Shown: piece by piece, positions 1-11,052 of the stretch
How the letters are laid out: each line of letters begins with the position of its first letter
Numbering within the stretch: the first letter of the stretch is position 1
IMG/VR virus record: IMGVR_UViG_2667528155_000009
DNA: 11,052 nucleotides
From: a virus
Lineage: Duplodnaviria; Heunggongvirae; Uroviricota; Caudoviricetes
Direction: 5' to 3' (one strand)
Made by a program: the position numbers and the translations under genes
Notes under the pieces: generated by a model
Database searches by the model: none
What the model saw: the letters and a program-made list of their open reading frames with translations, nothing else
What the model was told of the DNA's origin: nothing

Positions 1-57
1 ACCACCGCCTGCCGCTTCTTCGATCCGCGCCTGGCGTCGTCGATCACCATGCGTGGT
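1..57. other. GC-rich fragment of unknown origin, separated from the AT-rich phage sequence by an ambiguity-rich junction (N's at 58-86)
   Basis: About 65% GC against about 30% GC in the adjoining 100-900 region; ten scattered N's between 58 and 86; all three plus-strand frames are open, so no product can be assigned. Confidence 0.3.
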
Positions 58-86
58 NATNAGNTCACTGNGNCANANANACTTNN

Positions 87-879
87 TCCTGCAAAAGAAA
101 GTATCGCGTGTGTCATACTTCATGGCAAATCCAAAACCGACTTTTATGATGGATAACGTATGTATACTAAATGCAACATATGAAATGCAGCCAATAAGAA
201 ATAATGGGACGAAAACTGACATTAAATAGTTATTATCATCATCAGTTGGCGTTACTTTCCTTTTCTTTACTTTTGAGGGCATCAATATTAAACAAATAAT
301 GCAAACAAGGTAAATGATGCAATACAATATAAAAATAAAAAGTAATGCTACAACTGCCGTCATGAGTTTATTGAATGTAGCATCAAATGGAATGTCAAAC
401 AAATTGGAAATTAGCGAGCGTGCAATATAATATGAAATTAATGATACAATTACCCACACATATTTAATTCCCAGGTTAATTTTTATGGCTATGTTTTTTT
501 CTTCATTATCGAACGATTTTATGTGAGATGATATTGTGTATGTAATACACAATATCGTCACAAAAGCCAATGTATATGGAATGATGGTATTTATATAACC
601 AATAACGTTAAAGGAAACAATTGTTAATAAAAACAGAAATACCGACAACAGTGCGGCATCTTGCGTTTTTTTATAATTTTTTCGAAGGCGAACGGCCTGT
701 TGACTGGATGACTTTTTATTCCAATTATTTTGTACGATTAATCCGCTGAGAATAATCATACCAAACCAAATAAGAATGGGGTATACAGGATCACTCTGAG
801 GTATGATGACGAGCACTGCCATAAAAAACAATAAACTGTGAACAATCCCGAGGTGTAAGGAAGAGTATATACTTTTCAT
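87..879 (-). CDS. AT-rich polytopic membrane protein of unknown function, at least 265 aa, C-terminal end lost in the N junction; moron-like cargo gene
   Basis: ATG at complement 877-879 with AAGG about 7 nt upstream and an in-frame upstream stop at 907-909. I scanned the frame by hand and found no stop down to the N's. Translation MKSIYSSLHLGIVHSLLFFMAVLVII... contains about 7 hydrophobic helix-length segments with K/R-rich loops. Not in the supplied ORF track because no stop codon is reached. Confidence 0.5.
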
Positions 880-1323: not shown

Positions 1324-1530
1324 TCAGATATCACTCTCCCCAAGGCTCCTGCATTCAAAGTTCTCCAGTTTCACATGTTCACCGGCAGTACGGCCCGCCT
1401 CTTTAGGCTTATAAAAACGCATTTCGCACTGTTTCTGGGTCAGTCTGGTTTCGGAGTAAAATGACCAGGCCACAGGCGGATTGCCTGCTTTATGGATAGT
1501 TGCTGTAATTTTGTATTTTTTCCCTTTCAT
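1324..1530 (-). CDS. Hypothetical small protein (68 aa)
   Basis: Open frame filling the gap between flanking minus-strand genes; weak RBS (AGTAAGT); conserved element B lies 35-80 nt upstream. Uncertain. Confidence 0.25.
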   Translation of the reverse strand: MKGKKYKITATIHKAGNPPVAWSFYSETRLTQKQCEMRFYKPKEAGRTAGEHVKLENFECRSLGESDI

Positions 1531-1560: not shown

Positions 1561-1607
1561 ACACAGATTCGTATCACAAGCAGCCAGGAGTATCCAAGCA
1601 GGATATG
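1561..1607. repeat. Conserved intergenic element, copy B (ACACAG..ATTCGTATCACA..GCAGGATATG)
   Basis: Shares ACACAG, ATTCGTATCACA and GCAGGATATG blocks in the same order with copy A at 6661-6709; the copies differ by indels. Confidence 0.6.
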
Positions 1608-1645
1608 AAGGTAACCCAGTATGTTACCTTCACTGTCTGATATCA

Positions 1646-2386
1646 TCATTCGGTACTAAGCCCCTGCCACAACGCCCTGTTACCAGGTTTATGCACTTGC
1701 CGGGAAATCTCACGGCACTTTTTCAGACGTTTCAGTTTTGCTTCCGTCCTGCGAATTTCAGCGCTGATCGCCCGTGGTGTAGGGATGACAACGTCGTCGT
1801 GCCGCCGTTCTGTGAATGACGGTATCGACTGAATAAGGTCTGCAACGTTATCTGTTGAGGCTTCAGCAGCAGTTACTGATGCCGCTAACTTTATTGCTTC
1901 AGGTTGCGGCGCAGGATTATCGTCGCGCCCCATGGCTGAACAGGCTTTCTGTTTCTCCGGTAAACCATCATCAGGCAGACTGTAACGAAACTTGCCATCA
2001 TGATTAATCCGCAAAAGACGCCCCTTTCCCGTAGCCATCGCCAGCGTGGAGGCAACCTTCCTGGCTGTTGTGCTGAAGCGCCTGGACAGTTCATCCGCCG
2101 TCTGTGGGCCGTGTTTTCGGATAGCGTCTGTCAGCTGCTTCTCATCGATTTTCATAACCGTTTCCACTGGTGTTACAGGGTTCACTATTTTTTCTTTGGC
2201 AACGTCAGTCAGTTCCTTTTCCGGTCCGGACAGAGACCAGTAGCCGTTCAGGAATATCACCCTGCCTGAGTCTTCCTGCTCACGCAGCATTTCCAGAACA
2301 TCTTTTGTCTCGATGAGCAGGCGTGCTGCGACCTCGCGAGCAGTGGCTTTTCCCATCGCTTTCAGTGCATCAGTCACTGTTTCCAT
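1646..2386 (-). CDS. Hypothetical phage protein with two tandem winged-helix-like segments (246 aa)
   Basis: Start moved from the ORF-track TTG/ATG at 2461 to the ATG at complement 2384-2386 (METVTDAL...), which has AGGAGA 8 nt upstream and no longer overlaps the DnaC-like gene. Two similar segments (ATAREVAARLL...GRV and QTADELSRRF...GRLLRINHDGKF) look like wHTH DNA-binding domains; this is inference from sequence pattern only. Confidence 0.6.
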   Translation of the reverse strand: METVTDALKAMGKATAREVAARLLIETKDVLEMLREQEDSGRVIFLNGYWSLSGPEKELTDVAKEKIVNPVTPVETVMKIDEKQLTDAIRKHGPQTADELSRRFSTTARKVASTLAMATGKGRLLRINHDGKFRYSLPDDGLPEKQKACSAMGRDDNPAPQPEAIKLAASVTAAEASTDNVADLIQSIPSFTERRHDDVVIPTPRAISAEIRRTEAKLKRLKKCREISRQVHKPGNRALWQGLSTE

Positions 2387-2409
2387 TGACAATTTCTCCT
2401 GTGATTCAG

Positions 2410-3150
2410 TCAGGGCCGGTTGACGTTTTTTCGCCAGCTTTCCCAGCCAAAATTTACCCATCGGCCACCGTTCATGGACATTCTGTCCATCACCCGCTGA
2501 CCTGCCAGCTTAGTCAGTGCATCATGGTTCAGGTTGGTCAGCATTCCGACGCTGCGCAGGGATGCGGTCCGGCGATCAACAATCTGGTGCAGGATGACCT
2601 GCTCGTTGCGTGTCTCACGCTGCACACCAACCTCATCAAGGATCAGCAGGTCCACTCCGCACAGCTCCTTCAAAAATTTTTCACCCGAATTTCCATCATC
2701 GTACCCGGCATGAAGCGCACTCATCACGTCGGCGACGGTGATAACAATCACACTGCGTCCGGCGTTCATCAGGCGGTTACCTATGGCGGCGGCCAGATGA
2801 TTTTTGCCGGTACCAGGCTTACCGCTGAACACAAAATTTGTACAACCGGTATCCAGTTCAGCAGCTATGGATTTGGCCTGGCTGAGCGCATGCTTCTGGC
2901 CGTCATTCTGCACCCGGTAATTCTTGAACGAGCATCTGCGATGCAGTGGCTGAATACCGGCCCGACCGAAGATTTTTTCGGCCCTGGTCTGGCGGTTAAG
3001 TCGGTCAATTTCCTCGCAGCGTCTGCGCCCTTCGGCTAGCTGCCATTCCCGCCACTCCCCCGGCGTCCGGAACGGTGCGGAACTGTTGGCCGACCGTGGC
3101 GCCAGTTTCCTGATGCGGGCCAGAATCCCGGTATCTGCGATGTTTCTCAT
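2410..3150 (-). CDS. DnaC-like replicative helicase loader (IstB-like AAA+ ATPase)
   Basis: Walker A GKPGTGKNHLAAAIG, Walker B DLLILDEVG, and downstream QIVDRR...GMLTNLN...LAGQRVMDRM closely parallel E. coli DnaC as I recall it. ATG at complement 3148-3150 with GGGGGTG 7 nt upstream; sits 6 nt downstream of the O-like gene stop. Confidence 0.9.
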   Translation of the reverse strand: MRNIADTGILARIRKLAPRSANSSAPFRTPGEWREWQLAEGRRRCEEIDRLNRQTRAEKIFGRAGIQPLHRRCSFKNYRVQNDGQKHALSQAKSIAAELDTGCTNFVFSGKPGTGKNHLAAAIGNRLMNAGRSVIVITVADVMSALHAGYDDGNSGEKFLKELCGVDLLILDEVGVQRETRNEQVILHQIVDRRTASLRSVGMLTNLNHDALTKLAGQRVMDRMSMNGGRWVNFGWESWRKNVNRP

Positions 3151-3156
3151 GGCTTG

Positions 3157-4074
3157 TCACCCCCTGAAACCCGGTGGAATGGTTGTGTCCGGTGGCGAAA
3201 TATCCTGAATCCTGGTCGGGCTGTCGCGGCCACGATTGCCTCCCCGGTCCTGGTCTTTTGCCAGCCAGCCGGTGATAAATTTCCTGATGCCTCGGGCGGT
3301 TTTTCGTCGTCGTCGTTCGCTGAGCAGCCATCCGCGCTGATTACGCAGTGCCTGCCGGACGTCGACCGCCGGATACAGCGTCTCAAACTCGACAACCATC
3401 GATTCGGTCACGGAAAATTCAGAACCGTCGTTGAGCGGAAGCCGAATAAACTCAGGGTCATCAGGCGGTGTTGATGGCACACCAGCGCTCAGAGGCCGAC
3501 GCTCAGGTCCGACATGGGCTGGTCCGGTACCATCGGGCAAACTCGCACCCTGTGACCCGAAATTTTCATCCAGTTGCGTGGGGCTGATTTTTTCAGCTCC
3601 GCGCAAGAGGTTTTGATCTTTTAGATCTGTTTCTTTATCTTTATCTGGATCTTTATTAGTTGCCTTTGTGTTGGGCTCCTGTTCAAACACAGAACCAACA
3701 CCTGTTGAACATGTGTTATTTTCGCTGGCAGATTGTGCTTCCTTCCTGTTCCTTCTTGACTGAACAGATGCTTTTCCTGCTGCAGACTTTTTCGCTAAGG
3801 TTTCCCTGACCGAATGAAGATCATCTTCAATACGCTTGTGAACCCACTCCGTGCCGTTATCAGTAAAAAATTCTCTCAACGACTCTTCTACGGCTCCCCA
3901 ACGCTCACTGCTAACCCGGGCAATCTTTGCCAGCCTGTTTTTCGGTATAGCCCTTCCGGTCTGCCAGTAATTGAACATCAGCAGTAAATAGGCCCCATGC
4001 TCCTCGGTTGAAAGATGCATTGTGTCAGCCAAGTAATCAGCGATATAAAGCTGCATGTATGGAAGTGCCGCCAT
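3157..4074 (-). CDS. DUF1376/YdaU-like phage replication protein with a long low-complexity linker and a C-terminal domain
   Basis: N-terminus MAALPYMQLYIADYLADTMHLSTEEHGAYLLLMFNYWQTG matches the YdaU/DUF1376 pattern from memory; position immediately upstream of the DnaC-like gene is typical of an O-like initiator. GAGG 4 nt upstream of the ATG. Confidence 0.7.
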   Translation of the reverse strand: MAALPYMQLYIADYLADTMHLSTEEHGAYLLLMFNYWQTGRAIPKNRLAKIARVSSERWGAVEESLREFFTDNGTEWVHKRIEDDLHSVRETLAKKSAAGKASVQSRRNRKEAQSASENNTCSTGVGSVFEQEPNTKATNKDPDKDKETDLKDQNLLRGAEKISPTQLDENFGSQGASLPDGTGPAHVGPERRPLSAGVPSTPPDDPEFIRLPLNDGSEFSVTESMVVEFETLYPAVDVRQALRNQRGWLLSERRRRKTARGIRKFITGWLAKDQDRGGNRGRDSPTRIQDISPPDTTIPPGFRG

Positions 4075-4124
4075 AACGCCTCGCTACGCTCTTTTCCGTT
4101 CGGTCTGAATACAAAAATTAATAC

Positions 4125-4141
4125 TCACTGGTCATGTCTCT
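4125..4141 (-). repeat. Boundary motif copy 2 (minus-strand reading AGAGACATGACCAGTGA)
   Basis: Identical 17-mer to 4714-4730; one mismatch to the plus-strand copy at 7842-7859. Confidence 0.7.
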
Positions 4142-4152
4142 CTGTTTGGTGC

Positions 4153-4212
4153 CGAACCTCCTGCTGGTGCTAGCCTGCTGATTCCCCAACCAACAGAACC
4201 ACAGGAGGTTCG
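4153..4212 (+). promoter_or_regulatory. Long-range stem sequestering the ribosome-binding site of the 70-aa gene
   Basis: CGAACCTCCTG at 4153-4163 is the perfect reverse complement of CAGGAGGTTCG at 4202-4212, which contains the GGAGG Shine-Dalgarno 6 nt before the ATG at 4215. Pairing can extend to within 2 nt of the start codon. Confidence 0.4.
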
Positions 4213-4214
4213 AC

Positions 4215-4427
4215 ATGTCAGATACAAAACTTAAAAATGGATTAACGCCTGAACAAATGGCACACGATATCGCTATGGTGCTCATCGGGAACCCATCCCA
4301 TGAATGGCTTTCGGATAATGCGACCAAAACTCGTAGCACTGAATTAGCAATGAGCGCTGTAGCAGAAGAAGTCATGAACATGGAAAAACATCTTGCTGCA
4401 GCTCTTCATCAGTACACGGAGAACTAA
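4215..4427 (+). CDS. Hypothetical small protein (70 aa), encoded antisense to the surrounding early operon
   Basis: Strong RBS (GGAGG, 6-nt spacer), ATG start, intrinsic terminator immediately downstream, and protein-like composition. The overlapping minus-strand ORF 4118-4381 has no RBS and an odd composition. Confidence 0.6.
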   Translation: MSDTKLKNGLTPEQMAHDIAMVLIGNPSHEWLSDNATKTRSTELAMSAVAEEVMNMEKHLAAALHQYTEN

Positions 4428-4438
4428 TCCGCATCAAA

Positions 4439-4463
4439 GGTCGCTGAGTTCGCGACCTTTTTT
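4439..4463 (+). terminator. Intrinsic terminator downstream of the 70-aa gene
   Basis: Stem GGTCGC/GCGACC with a 6-7 nt loop, followed by TTTTTT at 4458-4463. Confidence 0.5.
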
Positions 4464-4684
4464 CAGTCCACTCCAGTAGGCATCCCCAACCATTTTTTTA
4501 TATCGCTATAACTCAGCGTTATGGGCTGATTTTTGCCGGACTCTTCAACCGGTATGGTATGTTCCTCTTCAAATTTCTTTTCGAAGGTACGCATGTGCTC
4601 ACGCCAGGCATTTCGATCTTCGATCGCTTCTTCCCTCCGGTTCAGTCTGGCGTAATACCGTTCCTGCTCAGTCAACGTTTTCAT
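4463..4684 (-). CDS. Hypothetical small protein (73 aa, MKTLTEQERYYARLNRRE...)
   Basis: ATG at complement 4682-4684 with AGGAG and a 5-nt spacer; charged helical composition. The ORF-track extension to 4717 overlaps the upstream gene and lacks an RBS. Confidence 0.5.
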   Translation of the reverse strand: MKTLTEQERYYARLNRREEAIEDRNAWREHMRTFEKKFEEEHTIPVEESGKNQPITLSYSDIKKWLGMPTGVD

Positions 4685-4700
4685 TACTTCTCCTGCATGG

Positions 4701-5204
4701 TTACAACAGATGGTCACTGGTCATGTCTCTGATACTGCTGGCGGTAACTGCTTCGTAGCGTCTGTATTGCTTGTATGGCTTCATCACACTCCCGTTCAAA
4801 ATCCGTAACAGGCGCACCAAGAAGTACCGCATTTGCCACTGCGGTTTTTTTAAAAACTGTGTAAGCAGATACTCGATGCTATGCCCTGCCGTGACCTGCT
4901 TATGCAGCTCCGGCGCGTGTATCCGGATTGCTTCAAGAACTGCGGGGATTAGCGCTGAAAACTTTTCGCGGTGCTCTGTCGTTTCGAGTTTTCGCCATCG
5001 CTGAAAAATGTTTATACGATTCCGGCGCCATGCTTCGTAATCCACCGTTCCGTCATCACGTTCTATACGGTGGACAGCAATATCTGGTCTCACTTGCTGT
5101 TCCAGAAAGGCGCGGGTGATCAACTGTGTTGCACTTTCCTGACTCATTGCGGGTGTAGCCAGCCAGGATGACAGTGCTTTGTTGGCATCCTCAGGGGTGA
5201 TCAT
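4701..5204 (-). CDS. YdaT-like protein (167 aa), occupying the cII-equivalent position
   Basis: Immediately downstream of the Cro-like gene; segments LITRAFLEQ and SALIPAVLEAI resemble Rac YdaT as I recall it. GAGGTG 7 nt upstream of the ATG; the start overlaps the end of the Cro-like gene (translational coupling). Confidence 0.55.
   Translation of the reverse strand: MITPEDANKALSSWLATPAMSQESATQLITRAFLEQQVRPDIAVHRIERDDGTVDYEAWRRNRINIFQRWRKLETTEHREKFSALIPAVLEAIRIHAPELHKQVTAGHSIEYLLTQFLKKPQWQMRYFLVRLLRILNGSVMKPYKQYRRYEAVTASSIRDMTSDHLL
4714..4730 (-). repeat. Boundary motif copy 1 (encodes the YdaT-like C-terminus RDMTSDHLL)
   Basis: Plus-strand TCACTGGTCATGTCTCT; identical 17-mer at 4125-4141. 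Confidence 0.7.
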
Positions 5205-5466
5205 CGTTGTTCACCTCTCTCGCATCCTTTAGTGGTAGATTTTGATGGCTAGGCAAAGCATCCGTTGGATTAGGGTAAAGAACTGAGTCGAGCTGATGCG
5301 GTGTAACTGCATACCCTACGGCCTCACAAAAAGGAATAATTCGTCGCGGTGGGAATTTTCCTGTTGTAACCCATAGACTTACGTTTTGCTGACTAGTTTT
5401 AAGACGTCGGGCGATCTCGGTCTGATTAGTGATGCCGAATAGTCGGCTCCTGGTTTTAAATTCCAT
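5191..5466 (-). CDS. Cro-like / YdaS-family HTH regulator (91 aa from the ATG at 5466)
   Basis: HTH segment ITNQTEIARRLKTSQQNVSLWV; C-terminal IIPFCEAVGYAVTPHQL resembles the YdaS pattern. GGAGG 4 nt upstream of the ATG at complement 5464-5466; the ORF-track start at 5484 is a GTG. Divergent from the repressor gene. Confidence 0.7.
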   Translation of the reverse strand: MEFKTRSRLFGITNQTEIARRLKTSQQNVSLWVTTGKFPPRRIIPFCEAVGYAVTPHQLDSVLYPNPTDALPSHQNLPLKDAREVNNDDHP

Positions 5467-5484
5467 ATATCCTCCAAATGTCAC

Positions 5485-5565
5485 ACTTGTATAAATACAG
5501 CATGAACTTGTATTTTACAAATTTAAATTTGTGTGACGCTAACAAAATTTACTTGTAAAATATGA
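5485..5565. promoter_or_regulatory. Immunity switch region: three operator-like dyads with divergent PR-like and PRM-like promoters
   Basis: Dyads ACTTGTATAAATACA (5485-5499), ACTTGTATTTTACAA (5506-5520) and ACTTGTAAAATATGA (5551-5565), core TTGTA-N3-TACAA. Minus-strand promoter TTGTAA (5515-5520) N17 TATTTA (5492-5497) faces the Cro-like gene. Plus-strand promoter TGTGAC (5532-5537) N18 TAAAAT (5556-5561) faces the repressor. Confidence 0.5.
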
Positions 5566-5568
5566 GGT

Positions 5569-6003
5569 ATGAAAAAAAACAACGAATCAGCTCAATACGA
5601 GACTTCAGCCAGAAGGATCAAACAGGTCCTGTATGAATTAGGCTGGAACCAAAGTCGCCTGGCTAAAGAAATTGGGGTTTCAGCTCAGGCGGTACAACAA
5701 TGGGCAAAAGGTACTTCTCGACCGAATGGCCCTAATCTAACTCGACTTTCTGAAGTCACAAGCAAACCTGAAGCATGGTTTTTCAGTGATGTCAGCGGGT
5801 TATCTGAGAGTCATGCAGTACATTTACCAGAAAGTAATGGTTCAGACTTTCTCCCGCTTAGCGATGAAGAGATCAGACTGCTAACTGTCTTCAGGAAATT
5901 TCCTTCTGTAGAGAGTAAAAACATGCTGTTAGCGTTTGAGATGAGACTTCAGGAGATAAAAGAATACTATTCCAAATACGCTAATCCCAATAAAAACCGA
6001 TAG
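5569..6003 (+). CDS. DicA/RacR-like prophage repressor (HTH_XRE, 144 aa, no S24 peptidase domain)
   Basis: HTH NQSRLAKEIGVSAQAVQQWAKG; C-terminal LSDEEIRLLTVFRKFPSVESKNMLLAFEMRLQEIKEY parallels DicA as I recall it. Divergent from the Cro-like gene across the operator region. Confidence 0.8.
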   Translation: MKKNNESAQYETSARRIKQVLYELGWNQSRLAKEIGVSAQAVQQWAKGTSRPNGPNLTRLSEVTSKPEAWFFSDVSGLSESHAVHLPESNGSDFLPLSDEEIRLLTVFRKFPSVESKNMLLAFEMRLQEIKEYYSKYANPNKNR

Positions 6004-6029
6004 TCTCCTTCTTTCCTCCCCCAACAATC

Positions 6030-6056
6030 ACAAGCCTGCTTGAAATGCAGGCTTGT
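6030..6056 (+). other. Perfect 10-bp hairpin just after the repressor stop (ACAAGCCTGC-ttgaaat-GCAGGCTTGT), no U-tract
   Basis: Direct reading; shares its GCCTGC/GCAGGC stem core with hairpins at 7401-7415 and 7768-7785. Confidence 0.5.
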
Positions 6057-6128
6057 TACACCTCGCATAATAAAACACTTAAATTTCATACAATTAAAAA
6101 TTTTTAGTGATTTTCTCACTTTAAACAC

Positions 6129-6157
6129 TTGTATTTATCAAATCCATTTTGTAGATT
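6129..6157 (+). promoter_or_regulatory. PL-like promoter with overlapping operator-like site
   Basis: TTGTAT (6129-6134) N17 TAGATT (6152-6157); the -35 is embedded in AACACTTGTATTTATCAA, which repeats the ACTTGTA operator core. A second operator-like copy, ACACTTAAATTTCA, lies near 6073-6090. Confidence 0.35.
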
Positions 6158-6239
6158 GATTGTACAAATCCTCTAGCAACACATGCGCGACAGGTAAACG
6201 TTCCGCCGACGGGCGTAAAACAAAGATGAGGACGACAGA

Positions 6240-6428
6240 GTGGACAAGACTGAACTGAAACACATTATCGCCCTGCTCCTGGAAGATGCAAAACGTCTTC
6301 AGCAGGTTGAACCAAATGCAGGCACTGAGGCCCGCATATGGTTGGCTAATAAAACACTTAATTCATTCAGAGAGTTAAGCGGTTTTGCAAGAGGGTCAGG
6401 TATCTCTACCGAACACCAACTTTCTTAG
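6240..6428 (+). CDS. Hypothetical small protein (62 aa, GTG start)
   Basis: GAGG 8 nt upstream of the GTG; first ORF downstream of the PL-like promoter. Overlaps the convergent minus-strand zinc-ribbon ORF by 23 nt. Uncertain. Confidence 0.3.
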   Translation: MDKTELKHIIALLLEDAKRLQQVEPNAGTEARIWLANKTLNSFRELSGFARGSGISTEHQLS

Positions 6429-6594
6429 CTAGCGCCTCCATAATAATAGAATGTCGTTCGCTAAGAATGCCGATTGCCGCCCCGCAAAGTGCACACTGAA
6501 CGAAGTGAATAATGTGACTGCAATTTTTCACTGAGGAATTGGTTTTTAACTCAAAAGAAGTTGATGGGCATTTTGGACAGGTTGTTACAGCCAT
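6406..6594 (-). CDS. Small zinc-ribbon-like protein (62 aa; CPKC ... CALC)
   Basis: Very good RBS (GGAGGG, 6-nt spacer, ATG at complement 6592-6594); Cys pairs CxxC and CxxC about 25 residues apart; conserved element A lies upstream on the minus strand. Confidence 0.45.
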   Translation of the reverse strand: MAVTTCPKCPSTSFELKTNSSVKNCSHIIHFVQCALCGAAIGILSERHSIIMEALAKKVGVR

Positions 6595-6660
6595 ATTTTA
6601 CCCTCCACGGGGTCGATGTTGGTGGAGTTCCCGACGGACGAGGTCGGGAATGTGCGCCGG

Positions 6661-6709
6661 ACACAGGTATAAATCCGGCATACGAAATTCGTATCACATG
6701 CAGGATATG
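6661..6709. repeat. Conserved intergenic element, copy A; contains the perfect 15-bp palindrome ATACGAAATTCGTAT (6680-6694)
   Basis: Same ordered blocks as copy B at 1561-1607. The palindrome is formed only in copy A. Confidence 0.6.
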
Positions 6710-6728
6710 TATTTAAACACGAGCACAT

Positions 6729-6803
6729 AACCGAAAACGCACTACGCAGAACCTTCCTTGTCGGGTCTGTCGTTAAATTTACTGCGATAGTGCGTTTCCG
6801 GTT
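6729..6803. repeat. Long imperfect inverted repeat (about 21-bp arms, about 32-nt spacer)
   Basis: AACCGAAAACGCACTACGCAG (6729-6749) against the reverse complement of CTGCGATAGTGCGTTTCCGGTT (6782-6803); one mismatch and one bulge. Confidence 0.55.
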
Positions 6804-6824
6804 ATGAGTGAAAATCATAACAGT

Positions 6825-6887
6825 GCTGTGTGTAGTCTTTGACGGTATCCGTTAACAAAGTTTTCCTGGCTGATACCGTCCTTTTTC
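6825..6887 (+). ncRNA. Candidate DicF-family sRNA with intrinsic terminator
   Basis: TTTGACGGTATCCGTT is close to the DicF core TTTGGCGGTATCAGTT as I recall it (14/16). Stem GACGGTATC (6841-6849) / GATACCGTC (6872-6880) is followed by CTTTTTC. Lies in the PL-like operon downstream of a DicA-like repressor, the position where dicF sits in Qin. Confidence 0.4.
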
Positions 6888-7071
6888 AGAATGAATTTTA
6901 TAGTGTGGTGAATGCGGCTCAGCGCACGTGACACAGTTAAAAACATGTCAGTCCTTCATCTGTTGATGGGTGGGAATGTTCGTCGGCAGTAATGGTTAGC
7001 TGTTTACTGTCACCGGGAGGCACCCGGCACCACACTCCAAAATTCATTGTGTTACCAGAATGGAGACAACT

Positions 7072-7362
7072 ATGCCAGTTACACCTGAAATAAAACAAAA
7101 CTCAGACTGGATGCGGCGCAACAAATCTGAACAAACCGCCCCTGCCTGTAAGCCTGGTATTATTCAGAAAATATTAAGTACGCTGAACCAGAAAGGTGAC
7201 CCCACCCTTATTCCTTGCGCTTATTGTGGCAAAGCCATCAACAAAAGTGAAATCGTGGAGCATGAACTTATTTATATAAACGGAAGTCAGCTCGCAAGAA
7301 AAACGAATCTATATTGCAGTAAACGATGTGCCGAATATGACCAGATGGCACATGAATCTTAA
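7072..7362 (+). CDS. Zinc-ribbon-like hypothetical protein (96 aa; CAYCGK ... CSKRC)
   Basis: GGAG 5 nt upstream of the second ATG at 7072; the ORF-track start at 7060 lacks an RBS. Confidence 0.55.
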   Translation: MPVTPEIKQNSDWMRRNKSEQTAPACKPGIIQKILSTLNQKGDPTLIPCAYCGKAINKSEIVEHELIYINGSQLARKTNLYCSKRCAEYDQMAHES

Positions 7363-7400: not shown

Positions 7401-7415
7401 GCCTGCAATGGCAGG
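7401..7415 (+). other. Intercistronic hairpin GCCTGC-aatg-GCAGG
   Basis: Same stem core as the hairpins at 6030-6056 and 7768-7785; lies between the 96-aa and 110-aa genes. Confidence 0.4.
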
Positions 7416-7445
7416 ATATCACTCACCCTGAAAAGAGAATATAAA

Positions 7446-7778
7446 ATGAGAAAGACACCGAGCGAATCAGTAATTAATGAACTCAACAAACGAGCAAAGG
7501 AAATTCTTGAACTGTGTGAGAAAAACGATATTCCGGTTGTTTTTTGTTACTCATTCGAATTAAGCCGGAATGAAAATGGATATTTAAACAACAAATCCAT
7601 TACAGCTTATATCAATAAAGAGAAAGGAGCATGGGATTCAACAATAGCCGCAGCCAGCATGATCCTGCGGATGAAAGAGGTTCCTGAGATAGCTATCCAT
7701 GCAATGGCTGAAATGGCTGCGATTTGTGACATCACACGGACTGCATCCGGTACTTCAGATGAAAAAAGCCTGCACTAA
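7446..7778 (+). CDS. Hypothetical protein (110 aa)
   Basis: ATG with an A/G-rich upstream region (AAGAGA); protein-like composition; in the PL-like operon. Confidence 0.5.
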   Translation: MRKTPSESVINELNKRAKEILELCEKNDIPVVFCYSFELSRNENGYLNNKSITAYINKEKGAWDSTIAAASMILRMKEVPEIAIHAMAEMAAICDITRTASGTSDEKSLH

Positions 7779-7841: not shown

Positions 7842-7859
7842 AGAGACATGACCAATGAG
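7842..7859 (+). repeat. Boundary motif copy 3 (AGAGACATGACCAATGAG), 56 nt upstream of the RecE-like start
   Basis: One mismatch to the minus-strand copies at 4125-4141 and 4714-4730; shares the upstream ACCAAAC with copy 2. Confidence 0.7.
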
Positions 7860-7914: not shown

Positions 7915-10900
7915 ATGAGTGATAAGAAAGAAGATTTCGCGCTGTACTGCCCTGTTAAAAATGAAGAGGCCAGGAAACGACTTGGAATAAAAGCAGGCTT
8001 TTTCTGGGCAACTGCAAAAAAATTATCTGTGGCTGTTTCCCGCTGTATTGCTGCTATGGACGATAAGGGGTATGACGAGGATGACTTTAAAAAACCTGTT
8101 CGCGTCAATTACCCCGTCGTTAACGACCTGCCTCCTGAAGGCGTGTTTGATACTGAATTCTGCAACCGTTACGAAAAAGGCGGTCAGGGTGGTATCACAA
8201 TGGTACTTATCCCCGGCGCTGTTCCCGCCGATCCAATGCACGGCGAAGTCGGCAGGGATATTACTGGCAGCGGCAACGCAGACGCAGACGCAGACGCAGG
8301 CACAGACGCAGATAATGCTACGGACAATACCGAAAGTACGCTCCTCCCCGCTTACGCTTATAACGTCAACGGCGAACTGATGTCGGAAGTGGAAAAGGAA
8401 ATGTCGCAGCCTGTTTCAGGACTAAGTCTGCCACTTCGTTTCCTGGCGCAATTTAATAACGACTGTCCACAACATCAGGTCACACCAGAGCGTTTACGGG
8501 AGTTAAACCTTACAGAGCAGGATCCCGACAGTCGTACCGGAACTATTTTACTCGCCATCCAGAACAGAAAGGAACAGCTCGAAAAACTGGACACAAAAAA
8601 CCTGCATCCTTTGGCGACGTACATTGAAAAAGTATTTCCCTGCGGAAAACGACCACAACTCAATGATGTCATTAATTTTATCGATGCCGTACTTAATACA
8701 GACTATGTCGATCGCGGACTGCTCGTTAAGGAATGGTGCGAAGGTCGTCGAGCCGCGTGCGTAGAGCATGTAACAGCACCAGAAACCAGGCGTGATAATA
8801 CTGTGTCAGCGCAGACGGAAACGAAGACTACTGTCACTGAACGTCCGCGTCGTAGCGAAAAAACAACGCACCGGACGATTAATTATGAAATTGGCTGTGG
8901 CTTATATGACGGCGAGCTGGATCTTCATAACCTGAGGGAACCGCTGGATTTTGCGAAACGCATTATGGCGAAAGACCGGGAAGACTGGAAAGTATGGTCA
9001 GACACAATCAACTGCATCCCTGGCATCCTGAATTATGACCGCCAGACCATTATCGAGATGGTACGAAAAGCCCCCACCCCGACTTATCACAGTGCTGCAC
9101 TGCGCCGCGAGTGGTGTGATTCTTATCTGCGAGCCTGGGGACGGCTCGATCCCGACTGGAGCCAGAGCGCCGCTGTCAAAACAGCAGAGTCACATGAAGA
9201 TGTCTGTGCTGATATCAGGAAGGCCGGAAAGCGCCTGCGTGAAATTGAATCAGGAGTTGGGATCAATGAAGAAAAACAGACGACACAGGGAGAACTGGCA
9301 GATGAACCGTCAGCGCCTGAATCAGTGGAACCGGCTTCAGCTGAACATCAGCAGAATACGCAGCCGCTGGATGCTGAGGCATCTGTAAACACCACTAAAA
9401 CGGAATTCGATGTATTTGCTCTAATGCAGAACTCATCTGTTTATGGCAGCAAAAACACACAGGAGACGACCAGCAATGTGCAGGTTCAGGACGCTGAAAA
9501 GGATGAAAAACAGGCTGGTACTGAAGTTCAGTCAGGCGAAAGCAGTCTGGGAACTGGTGAAGAGTCAGATACCAGACAGCAAGCCGATGTAAACCAGAAT
9601 ACGGATTCTGTCGCCCAAAATAGCGATTCTGTAAACCAAACTGAACCAGTTTTGGCACAAACCGAGCCAGAAGTGCAATCTGACGAACCGGCTGTTGTTT
9701 ACCCCGCTTACTTCGAACCAGGCCGCTATGAGGGTCTGCCGAACGAGGTTTATCACGCAGCCAACGGTATCAGCTCGACAATGGTAAAAGATGCGCGGGT
9801 GAGCCTGATGTACTTCAATGCGCGCCACGTAGAGAAAACCATTATCAAAGAACGCTCTCCTGTACTGGATATCGGTAACCTGGTGCATGCACTGGCGTTG
9901 CAGCCAGATCAACTCGATGAAGAATTCAGCATTGAACCCGTAATTCCGGAAGGTGCATTTACCACCACGGCAACGATCCGCGCGTTTATTGATGAGCACA
10001 ACGCCAGCCTGACAGCGATGCTGTCAGCCGACGACATCAAAGCACTGTTAGAAGAGTACAACGCCACCCTTCCTGCTCAGGTTCAGTTAGGTGGTTCCGT
10101 GGAGGAAACTGGCCAGAGCTATATGTCGCTGCCAGAAGAGTTCCAGCGTCTCGAAGCGGACAAGAAGCAGACCGCAGCGGCAATGAAAGCCTGCATCAAG
10201 GAATACAACACCACACTGCCTGCACAAGTGAAAATCAGCGGTAGCCGTGATGCGTTACTCGAGCAGTTAGCAATCATCAATCCTGACCTGGTGGCGCAGG
10301 AAGCGCAGAAGCCCGCGCAGTTGAAAGTGTCCGGCACCAAAGCGGATCTGATTCAGGCCGTGAAGTCTGTTAATCCTGATGCCATCTTCGCCGACGAACT
10401 GCTGGATGCGTGGCGCGAAAATACGCAAGGGAAAGTGCTGGTCACCCGCCAGCAACTGAGCACTGCACTGAGCATTCAGAAAGCCCTGCTCGAGCACCCT
10501 ACAGCGGGCAAGCTACTGACACACCCGAGCCGCGCCGTTGAGGTGAGCTACTTCGGTTTTGACGACGAAACCGGTCTGGAAGTCCGCGTTCGTCCCGACC
10601 TTGAGATCGATCTTGACGGGGTGCGCATCGGCGCCGACCTGAAAACCATCAGCATGTGGAACATTAAACAGGAAGGTCTGCGCGCCAAACTGCACCGCGA
10701 AATCATCGACCGTGACTACCACCTGAGTGCTGCCATGTATTGCGAGACCGCAGCGCTTGACCAGTTCTTCTGGATTTTCGTCAACAAAGACGAGAACTAC
10801 CACTGGATCGCCATCATCGAGGCATCCGCCGAACTTCTGGAACTGGGCATGCTGGAGTACCGCAAGGCAATGCGCGCCATCGCTACCGGCTTTGACACTG

Positions 10901-10977
10901 GCGAGTGGCCAGCGCCGATCACCTCCGGTAACTCCGATGAAATAGCCGACTACACCGACGAACTGAACGATTTCGAC
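7915..10977 (+). CDS. recE: RecE-like exodeoxyribonuclease VIII, 1021 codons with no stop; 3' end replaced by the chimeric junction
   Basis: C-terminal PD-(D/E)XK-like block RVRPDLEIDLDGVRIGADLKTIS; position at the distal end of the PL-like operon of a Rac-like immunity region; GAGG 10 nt upstream of the ATG. The reading frame runs into N's and 16S sequence after codon 1021 (DFD). Family call is from recall, not a search. Confidence 0.7.
8275..8310 (+). repeat. In-frame tandem hexanucleotide repeat (GACGCA-like, 6 units) encoding a D/A-rich low-complexity tract
   Basis: AACGCA GACGCA GACGCA GACGCA GGCACA GACGCA, translating to NADADADAGTDA. Confidence 0.7.
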
Positions 10978-11052
10978 NCNTGCCATCNGANGNGCCCAGA
11001 TGGGATTAGCTAGTAGGTGGGGTAACGGCTCACCTAGGCGACGATCCCTAGC
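10978..11052 (+). rRNA. 16S rRNA gene fragment (about 75 nt, enterobacterial, corresponding to roughly positions 220-290 of E. coli 16S); not native to this locus
   Basis: TGCCATCNGANGNGCCCAGATGGGATTAGCTAGTAGGTGGGGTAACGGCTCACCTAGGCGACGATCCCTAGC matches the conserved 16S region as I recall it. Abrupt junction with N's at 10978, 10980, 10988, 10991 and 10993, inside what would otherwise be the RecE-like coding frame. Confidence 0.8.

Follow-up and report, generated by a model that had tools for sequence, protein, structure and literature searches.

Promoters of the σ70 extended −10 class (TGnTATAAT) combine −35 and −10 hexamers 16–18 nucleotides (nt) apart with a TG at positions −15/−14, an A at −11 and a T at −7. 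In the Rac prophage, RalA is encoded antisense to ydaC and pairs with the ralR mRNA via a 16-nt repeat (PMC4041452). We compared with such systems two short look-alike elements, here called copy B and copy A, which lie in an 11,052-nt stretch of a caudoviricete genome (IMG/VR record IMGVR_UViG_2667528155_000009; the whole stretch is referred to as the window). Both genes downstream of these elements are small and are encoded on the minus strand. Copy B ends 30 nt before the ATG (at 1530) of a gene of the DUF1187 (YdaC) family and copy A ends 66 nt before the ATG (at 6594) of a gene for a zinc-ribbon protein. The preliminary description of this DNA had presented them as diverged copies of one element, possibly a promoter or operator shared by the two genes or a binding site of the zinc-ribbon protein. 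We infer from the comparison of homologous regions that copy B is the native σ70 promoter which travels with DUF1187 genes and that it has decayed in this lineage. Judged by the alignments, copy A is no independent second copy; it is a short lineage-specific look-alike in a variable spacer, either derived from copy B or matching it by chance. To the joint explanation, a decayed DUF1187 promoter in copy B together with a patch of copy A derived from it, we give an even chance of being right.

DUF1187 is the YdaC family, which the protein alignment shows to be clearly protein-coding; the product of the gene downstream of copy B is 49% identical to ydaC of phage Rac-SA53. Homologues with 63–73% protein identity occur in non-phage contexts of Salmonella (related loci are labelled with L and a number): in loci resembling integrative and conjugative elements (ICE) with TraU and TraG genes (L027, L028), in an island-like locus with an integrase gene in which a CaiF/GrlA gene is also present (L024), in two chromosomal loci (L041, L043) and in an ICE-like locus on a metagenome contig (L040), the one lineage added by the metagenome scan. 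The upstream regions could thus be aligned in six lineages, i.e. this prophage, L027/L028, L040, L024, L041 and L043. The only invariant columns are TGG and C-TGTGATA; they belong to two conserved islands, (T/C)TGG(C/A)(G/A/T) and, after 16–17 nt, C-N-TGTGATA(C/T/A)(T/G), while the spacers vary and the rest is unalignable. In these diverged homologues, conservation is thus limited to the two hexamers. In the lineages other than this phage, the −10 hexamer is GATACT, GATATT or GATAAT, each preceded by TG-n, and T occupies −7 in all five lineages. Moreover, the upstream gene is divergent in L027 and L028, so that the promoter of DUF1187 must lie in this very region.

The site in copy B reads TTGGAT-16-TGtGATACG, with G at −7 where the five other lineages have T. 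According to a rough σ70 weight matrix with approximate frequencies, the homologous site is the top candidate of its 200-nt region in L027, L040, L041 and L043 and the second in L024, the scores of the five lineages corresponding to the 99.86th to 99.999th percentile of the window background; the site of copy B itself is at the 98.7th percentile (rank 19 of 860 in its own region). Hexamers at the spacing of the extended −10 class and the TG at −15/−14 are present in both copies of the window, and T at −7 is present in neither (both read GATACG). The similarity to this promoter class hence lies in a −35-like hexamer and a TG-n-GATAnT motif 16–17 nt apart as the sole conserved islands, whereas G at −7 and a poor −35 set both window copies apart from it and make the activity of these predicted sites doubtful. 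The proposal that the element is a promoter is therefore supported for copy B, the core of which is homologous to the −35/−10 pair conserved in five other lineages, and for copy B only. The homology and the pattern of conservation are observed; from them we infer promoter activity.

The native promoter would have had a −35 of the TTGGCG type, a spacer of 16–17 nt and a TG-extended −10 GATAnT, which in this phage lineage would have decayed to TTGGAT and GATACG, with G replacing the normally invariant T at −7. The DUF1187 gene, now at the end of the rightward early operon, would be read mainly from upstream. Transcription from upstream is plausible because the DUF1627 gene that precedes it is co-directional and the two are parted only by a 9-bp hairpin without a U-run. 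In L021 and L023 this hairpin keeps its stem but varies in the loop. The IncI2 plasmids and several prophages offer no upstream region for comparison, since the DUF1187 gene abuts the upstream gene there. DUF1187 genes are widespread on conjugative IncI2-type plasmids (L038, NZ_CP034798.1; 531 plasmid records), on which the gene overlaps the end of a gene for a CaiF/GrlA-family regulator. Neither the copy B region nor the L027 promoter region had a match in the E. coli genomes.

The coordinates of the copies, the shared blocks ACACAG, ATTCGTATCACA and GCAGGATATG in identical order, the palindrome in copy A and a third GCAGGATAT were all found in the sequence as described before. In the most economical alignment, the minus (gene-sense) strand of copy B reads CATATCCTGC[TTGGATACTCCTGGCTGC]TTGTGATACGAAT-CTGTGT and that of copy A CATATCCTGC-ATGTGATACGAAT[TTCGTATGCCGGATTTATAC]CTGTGT. 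The best alignment of the two is the 23-nt patch CATATCCTGCATGTGATACGAAT, so that copy A is CATATCCTGC-A-TGTGATACGAAT on this strand. Taking away the 18 nt that separate the two CTGCTTG repeats of copy B gives this patch, with 22 of the 23 bases identical and one substitution. The internal 18-nt near-duplication ascribed to copy B proved to be only a 7-nt direct repeat (CTGCTTG, or CAAGCAG on the other strand) spaced 18 nt apart, and it bounds exactly the 18 nt exclusive to copy B. The 20 nt exclusive to copy A open with an inverted copy of the preceding ATACGAA, which generates the palindrome ATACGAAATTCGTAT; its right arm lies within the patch and its left arm is the inverted copy that starts the segment missing from copy B.

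The patch shares with copy B the lineage-specific GATACGAAT, whereas the family consensus GATACTTTT, GATATTTAA and others occur elsewhere; it was from this shared variant that the origin of the patch in this lineage's copy B was deduced. In CTGC-N-TGTGATAC the position N varies freely (T, G or A) among the DUF1187 lineages, and the likeness of the two copies reaches bases that other lineages do not conserve (CATATCC, AAT). Most simply, the patch would stem from copy B by a tiny duplication or recombination event, with the loss of one CTGCTTG-bounded unit of 18 nt, the direction of transfer being presumed from copy B to copy A. Together with a new −35 (TTTAAA), the patch may act as a weak promoter of the zinc-ribbon gene. 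The candidate site TTTAAA-16-TGtGATACG scores 4.3 with the weight matrix (rank 5 of 860 in the 200-nt region), and a start at this putative promoter would fall just before three conserved leader hairpins, which is suggestive.

The relatives informative for copy A are L009–L012, whose zinc-ribbon protein is 92% identical. In L009 the leader of the gene is conserved from ACCTGTGT to the ATG, but the 51 nt between the leader and a long hairpin, comprising blocks 2 and 3 and the palindrome, are replaced by about 135 unrelated nt, and the patch is absent from all of L009–L012. The conserved part of copy A belongs to a leader with three hairpins, all kept in L009. Structured leaders that occlude the ribosome-binding site are common for toxin-like or tightly controlled small genes and in type I toxin mRNAs. 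Both L009 and E. coli L001 keep, with compensatory changes, the long hairpin just upstream of copy A. Only if this hairpin is read on the minus strand are its non-Watson–Crick positions G-U pairs, which points to a structured RNA from the minus strand that does not depend on the zinc-ribbon gene. Two open reading frames (ORFs) running over copy A, 6539–6730 (+) and 6585–6818 (−), were rejected as genes, as the equivalent in L009/L010 is broken by a 5-nt indel.

Several observations weigh against the joint explanation. Both window sites lack the T at −7 and have poor weight-matrix scores, and a consensus promoter scan of the window returned no promoter at either copy. The alignable lineages number six only, and the weight matrix is a rough one. 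Scans of species-representative genomes with the DUF1187 protein, and then with its alignment, found nothing. Transfer of a 23-nt patch would be an unusual event. Likeness in the non-conserved bases CATATCC and AAT fits common descent, but it would also fit a lineage-restricted sequence-specific function. Finally, at about 0.5% per window, a chance match is still a realistic alternative once a whole genome is scanned.

The other explanations are given in order of decreasing probability. The first, a serious if lesser possibility, is that copy B is a remnant of the DUF1187 promoter and copy A an unrelated spacer whose 12-mer and 10-mer in common with copy B are accidental, the pairing and the core of copy A being functionless. 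The ungapped 16/17 match has a BLAST expectation value (E) of 0.04 for a 300-nt query only, which extrapolates to roughly 0.7 for the whole window. When collinear exact blocks of at least 6 nt within 65 nt were counted, a permissive statistic, the three blocks described before scored 28 matched bases, a value that roughly half of the shuffles attained. With a fourth collinear block, AATGTG (at 1545 and 6649), the chain score rises to 34, which was reached in none of 200 whole-window shuffles and in 3 of 800 block shuffles that kept the local composition. A collinear 12-mer and 10-mer occurred in 45 of 8263 Markov simulations (about 0.005). For one window, the likeness exceeds chance modestly (a level of about 0.5%); for a genome-wide scan it is not overwhelming.

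Comparison with L009 assigned ACACAG and AATGTG of copy A to the ancestral zinc-ribbon leader, and the lineage alignment showed TCTGT of copy B to be ancestral to the DUF1187 upstream region. As each locus inherited these sequences independently, the matches of two blocks in the chain of four are coincidental. The occurrence of a 9-mer three times had been taken as a sign of function; the third GCAGGATAT, however, is demonstrably coincidental, because relatives have GTAGGGATT and GCAGGGCCT in its place and because it lies in a different conserved hairpin, CCTGC-AAT-GGCAGG. Chance is also favoured by the missing copy A core in L009. What speaks against it, besides the simulations, is that the indel falls exactly on the 7-nt direct repeat of copy B and that copy A carries this lineage's GATACGAAT and not the family consensus.

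According to the second alternative, which we regard as quite unlikely, a phage or host protein (the repressor, Cro, the CII-like protein or the zinc-ribbon protein) binds CATATCCTGC...TGTGATACGAAT or the palindrome at both sites and co-regulates both small genes. The two sites do lie upstream of small minus-strand genes, each directly preceded by a hairpin, and copy A contains a perfect 7+1+7 palindrome. This palindrome occurs once in the window, however, even if three mismatches are allowed, copy B having just one arm, and both it and the patch are missing beside the 92% identical zinc-ribbon protein. The near-identical prophages L021 and L022 have copy B and neither copy A nor the zinc-ribbon gene, and the conserved core of copy B is found in integrative-element and island lineages in which no zinc-ribbon homologue was seen. 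In L009–L012, which keep both genes, the core of copy A is absent, and the DNA upstream of DUF1187 in L009 bears no relation to copy B. Nor do they vary together: L023 reads CATAACCTGC in copy B and CATATCCTGC in copy A, so that block 3 differs within one genome, and this block is not conserved in other DUF1187 lineages. In IMG/VR, scans for ATTCGTATCACANGCAG and CTGCNTGTGATACNNNTCTGT returned the window's own contigs and three unrelated matches, apparently in coding sequences.

An immunity operator is expected to change with the immunity type and to cluster at early promoters. Copy A resembles the operators of lambdoid and Rac immunity regions (RacR–YdaS) in being palindromic and near the immunity region. 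It differs in being a single site and in being unaffected by the replacement of window positions 5218–6181 (repressor, cro and operator) in L004, where both copies are identical to those of the window. The repeats of the immunity region are different, namely ACTTGTAW and TTGTA-N3-TACAA, at 5485, 5506, 5551 and 6127. They cluster at 5485–5565, between the repressor gene and cro, and at 6127–6141, downstream of the terminator-like hairpin of the repressor gene (about 6034–6058), and are the likely right and left operators. No convincing fit of either copy, judged by eye only, was found to sites of CRP (TGTGA-N6-TCACA), LexA or IHF, to DnaA boxes, or to sites of lambda CII (TTGC-N6-TTGC) or P2 Ogr (TGT-N12-ACA). 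Thus, neither a shared operator nor a binding site of the zinc-ribbon protein finds support in these comparisons.

The third alternative, which seems improbable, is trans-antisense RNA control similar to that of RalR/RalA (PMC4041452). Direct DNA repeats transcribed from opposite strands would give RNAs complementary over 16 of 17 plus 10 nt. Either the leftward early transcript (copy A, plus sense) would pair with the DUF1187 leader (copy B, minus sense), or a plus-strand RNA running through copy B would pair with the structured zinc-ribbon leader. If the patch were maintained for this complementarity, a RalA/RalR-like link would exist between two accessory genes 5 kb apart in two early operons, which we likewise consider hardly probable. 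The likeness to the described system consists in a direct repeat of about 16 nt near a ydaC-family gene and a small zinc-ribbon gene, with opposite-strand transcription providing the complementarity. The DUF1187 gene is a homologue of ydaC, which hosts RalA in Rac (PMC4041452), the presumed leftward early transcription unit includes copy A, the leader of the zinc-ribbon gene is strongly folded and occludes its ribosome-binding site, and a strong promoter-like site on the plus strand points through copy B.

This promoter-like site is, however, present in only some DUF1187 lineages and is not kept at synonymous positions in others, so codon choice may have produced it incidentally. On the plus strand, copy B is not followed by a terminator. 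Although the geometry of the direct repeats is compatible with antisense pairing, the searches over copy B yielded no small RNA, promoter–terminator pair or Rfam family. Both repeats are located upstream of genes and not in a toxin coding sequence or in an RNA inside ydaC, and the zinc-ribbon protein is not demonstrably a member of Lar/RalR. It scored 17.0 bits against PF14354 (Pfam cut-off 28.6, E = 0.007) and 17.5 against TIGR03655 (cut-off 39.6), BLASTP gave no alignment with RalR/Lar and hhalign a probability of 4.8%. In the relatives the copies neither co-occur nor co-vary. L021 and L022 retain copy B by itself, the change of T to A in block 3 of copy B in L023 has no counterpart in copy A, and L009–L012 have both genes but no matching repeat pair, the best match between the two upstream regions of the L009-type phage being a 12-mer with E = 0.17.

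That the repeat is a recombination linker or scar, either a boundary of module exchange or a substrate for deletion of the intervening 5.1 kb, is most improbable, since the mapped mosaic breakpoints (Table 1) miss both copies and another repeat, the 17-mer AGAGACATGACCAGTGA, does sit at such breakpoints, even though the window is strongly mosaic and the core of copy A lies exactly where homology to L009 breaks off.

The 17-mer occurs three times in gene sense, at 4125–4141 (−), 4714–4730 (−) and 7842–7858 (+), two copies being exact and one having a single mismatch. In all three cases a module begins at the copy or about 50 nt further on, namely the DUF1376 replication gene, an 84-aa ORF (aa, amino acids) and recE. 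The repeat contains a possible mini-ORF (ATG ACC AGT GA...), and the breakpoints relative to L021 (4710/4699) and L023 (4070) adjoin copies of it. Statistically it is stronger than the likeness of copies A and B, and it may be a module-boundary or translational-coupling sequence.

The genes themselves can be compared with the morons of prophages, which are autonomous accessory gene cassettes of lambdoid phages known from the HK97/HK022 literature. The zinc-ribbon gene resembles them in being present or absent between collinear prophages (absent at this position in L021, L022 and E. coli L001) and in being oriented against the early operon. The DUF1187 gene resembles them in keeping an upstream promoter region of its own whether it sits in a prophage, an integrative element or an island; it differs in being co-directional with the early-right operon. 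A further difference is that, on the minus strand, the window scan found no intrinsic terminator-like site after 6406 or after 1324. The position of the zinc-ribbon gene is presumably that of sieB in Rac of E. coli K-12. Its family is very small, with three homologous protein clusters found and no match in the deposited phage genomes. The AlphaFold model of the protein is of low confidence (pLDDT 62), the fold search yielded generic zinc ribbons only (E ≥ 0.6), and the sequence search against solved structures gave nothing significant.

The 62-aa ORF next to the zinc-ribbon gene has a conserved N-terminal part and a differing tail. Only its first 42 residues match PHROG families, themselves of differing length; nucleotide homology with E. 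coli stops at 6358, and the tail overlaps the convergent 3′ end of the zinc-ribbon gene. The original C-terminus of the ORF thus seems to have been replaced when the zinc-ribbon module was inserted. Upstream of the YdaE-family gene, sub-threshold Rfam matches to STnc100 (6880–7084, +; 39.5 bits, gathering score 47, E = 7.6e-6) and to a DicF-like family (6827–6881, +; 24 bits, E = 0.11) were obtained, and positions 6764–7074 are 71% identical to a non-coding stretch upstream of E. coli kilR. Probably the leftward early operon has a conserved structured leader or a small-RNA region here.

Judging from its genes, the window comes from a Rac-like lambdoid prophage of Salmonella enterica, of which it covers the immunity and early region. 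The gene content is like that of Rac (racR-, ydaS-, ydaT-, ydaU-, ydaV- and ydaW-like genes, a YdaE-family gene and recE), gene order is the same as in the E. coli Rac-like locus, and the nearest DUF1187 homologues carry Salmonella enterica names. The window is 100% identical to a contig of the NCBI assembly GCA_000939335.1 and matches two IMG/VR contigs. Its last 51 bases (11002–11052) match bacterial 16S rRNA (model positions 237–287), which accounts for the matches of the window in 5416 of 5426 E. coli genomes. The 16S-like fragment directly follows masked N bases within the 3′ end of recE and is also present in the source IMG/VR contig; the contig end may be chimeric or stitched together. 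Further N bases are found close to the beginning of the window (53–110).

Table 1 Positions of the elements, structures and genes discussed, in window coordinates
Feature	Coordinates	Strand	Remarks
Copy B	1561–1607	−	Upstream region of the DUF1187 (YdaC-family) gene; aligned across six lineages
−35-like hexamer of copy B, TTGGAT	1592–1597	−	TTGGCG, CTGGCG or TTGGCA in other lineages
TG-extended −10-like element of copy B, TGTGATACG	1570–1578	−	Hexamer GATACG at 1575–1570
Copy A	6661–6709	−	Lineage-specific spacer patch 6687–6709 joined to the conserved start of the zinc-ribbon leader, 6661–6679
23-nt patch	6687–6709	−	Contains TGTGATACG at 6698–6690
Palindrome (ATACGAA-A-TTCGTAT)	6680–6694		Two 7-nt arms and one central base
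Candidate −35 of copy A, TTTAAA	6712–6717	−	16 nt upstream of GATACG of copy A; tentative assignment, weak evidence
Third GCAGGATAT	7411–7419	+	Conserved in neither L001 nor L009; does not belong to the feature
Hairpin between the DUF1627 stop and copy B	1608–1632		Perfect 9-bp stem (GAAGGTAAC...GTTACCTTC)
Promoter-like site TTGCCT-17-TGTAAT	1481–1509	+	Upstream TG; inside the 5′ end of the DUF1187 gene; second-best weight-matrix score of the window
Structured zinc-ribbon leader	6603–6679	−	Fold z = −3.18; 0/200 shuffles fold as well
Leader hairpin 1	6656–6679	−	ACACAG block in loop and stem
Leader hairpin 2 (middle)	6628–6650	−	G-C to A-U compensatory change in L009
Leader hairpin 3	6603–6627	−	CUCCAC pairs with GUGGAG and occludes the ribosome-binding site
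Long hairpin	6726–6806		19-bp arms, 43-nt loop; directly upstream of copy A in minus-strand sense
Mosaic breakpoints, L004	5217/6182
Mosaic breakpoints, L021	6476/7081 and 4710/4699
Mosaic breakpoints, L023	4070/3618 and 2399/1884
DUF1187 (YdaC-family) gene	1324–1530	−	68 aa; Pfam PF06688, E = 1.3e-18; conserved protein alignment
DUF1627 gene	1646–2461	−
DnaC/IstB-like gene	2410–3150	−
DUF1376 replication gene	3157–4074	−
YdaT/CII-like gene	4701–5204	−
YdaS/Cro-like gene	5191–5484	−
Helix-turn-helix repressor gene	5569–6003	+
62-aa ORF	6240–6428	+
Zinc-ribbon gene	6406–6594	−	62 aa; CxxC...CxxC, then a C-terminal helix; protein alignment
YdaE-family gene	7060–7362	+
110-aa ORF	7446–7778	+
recE	7915–11013	+

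The comparison removes the tempting but unsupported idea of a shared operator or of a binding site for the zinc-ribbon protein from this region. If the 23-nt patch is a true micro-duplication, it would be a small example of the reuse of a promoter fragment within one phage genome. For the YdaC family, the alignment identifies a probable promoter that accompanies these genes across prophages, integrative elements and genomic islands, and that would have decayed once the DUF1187 gene came to sit inside a phage early operon.

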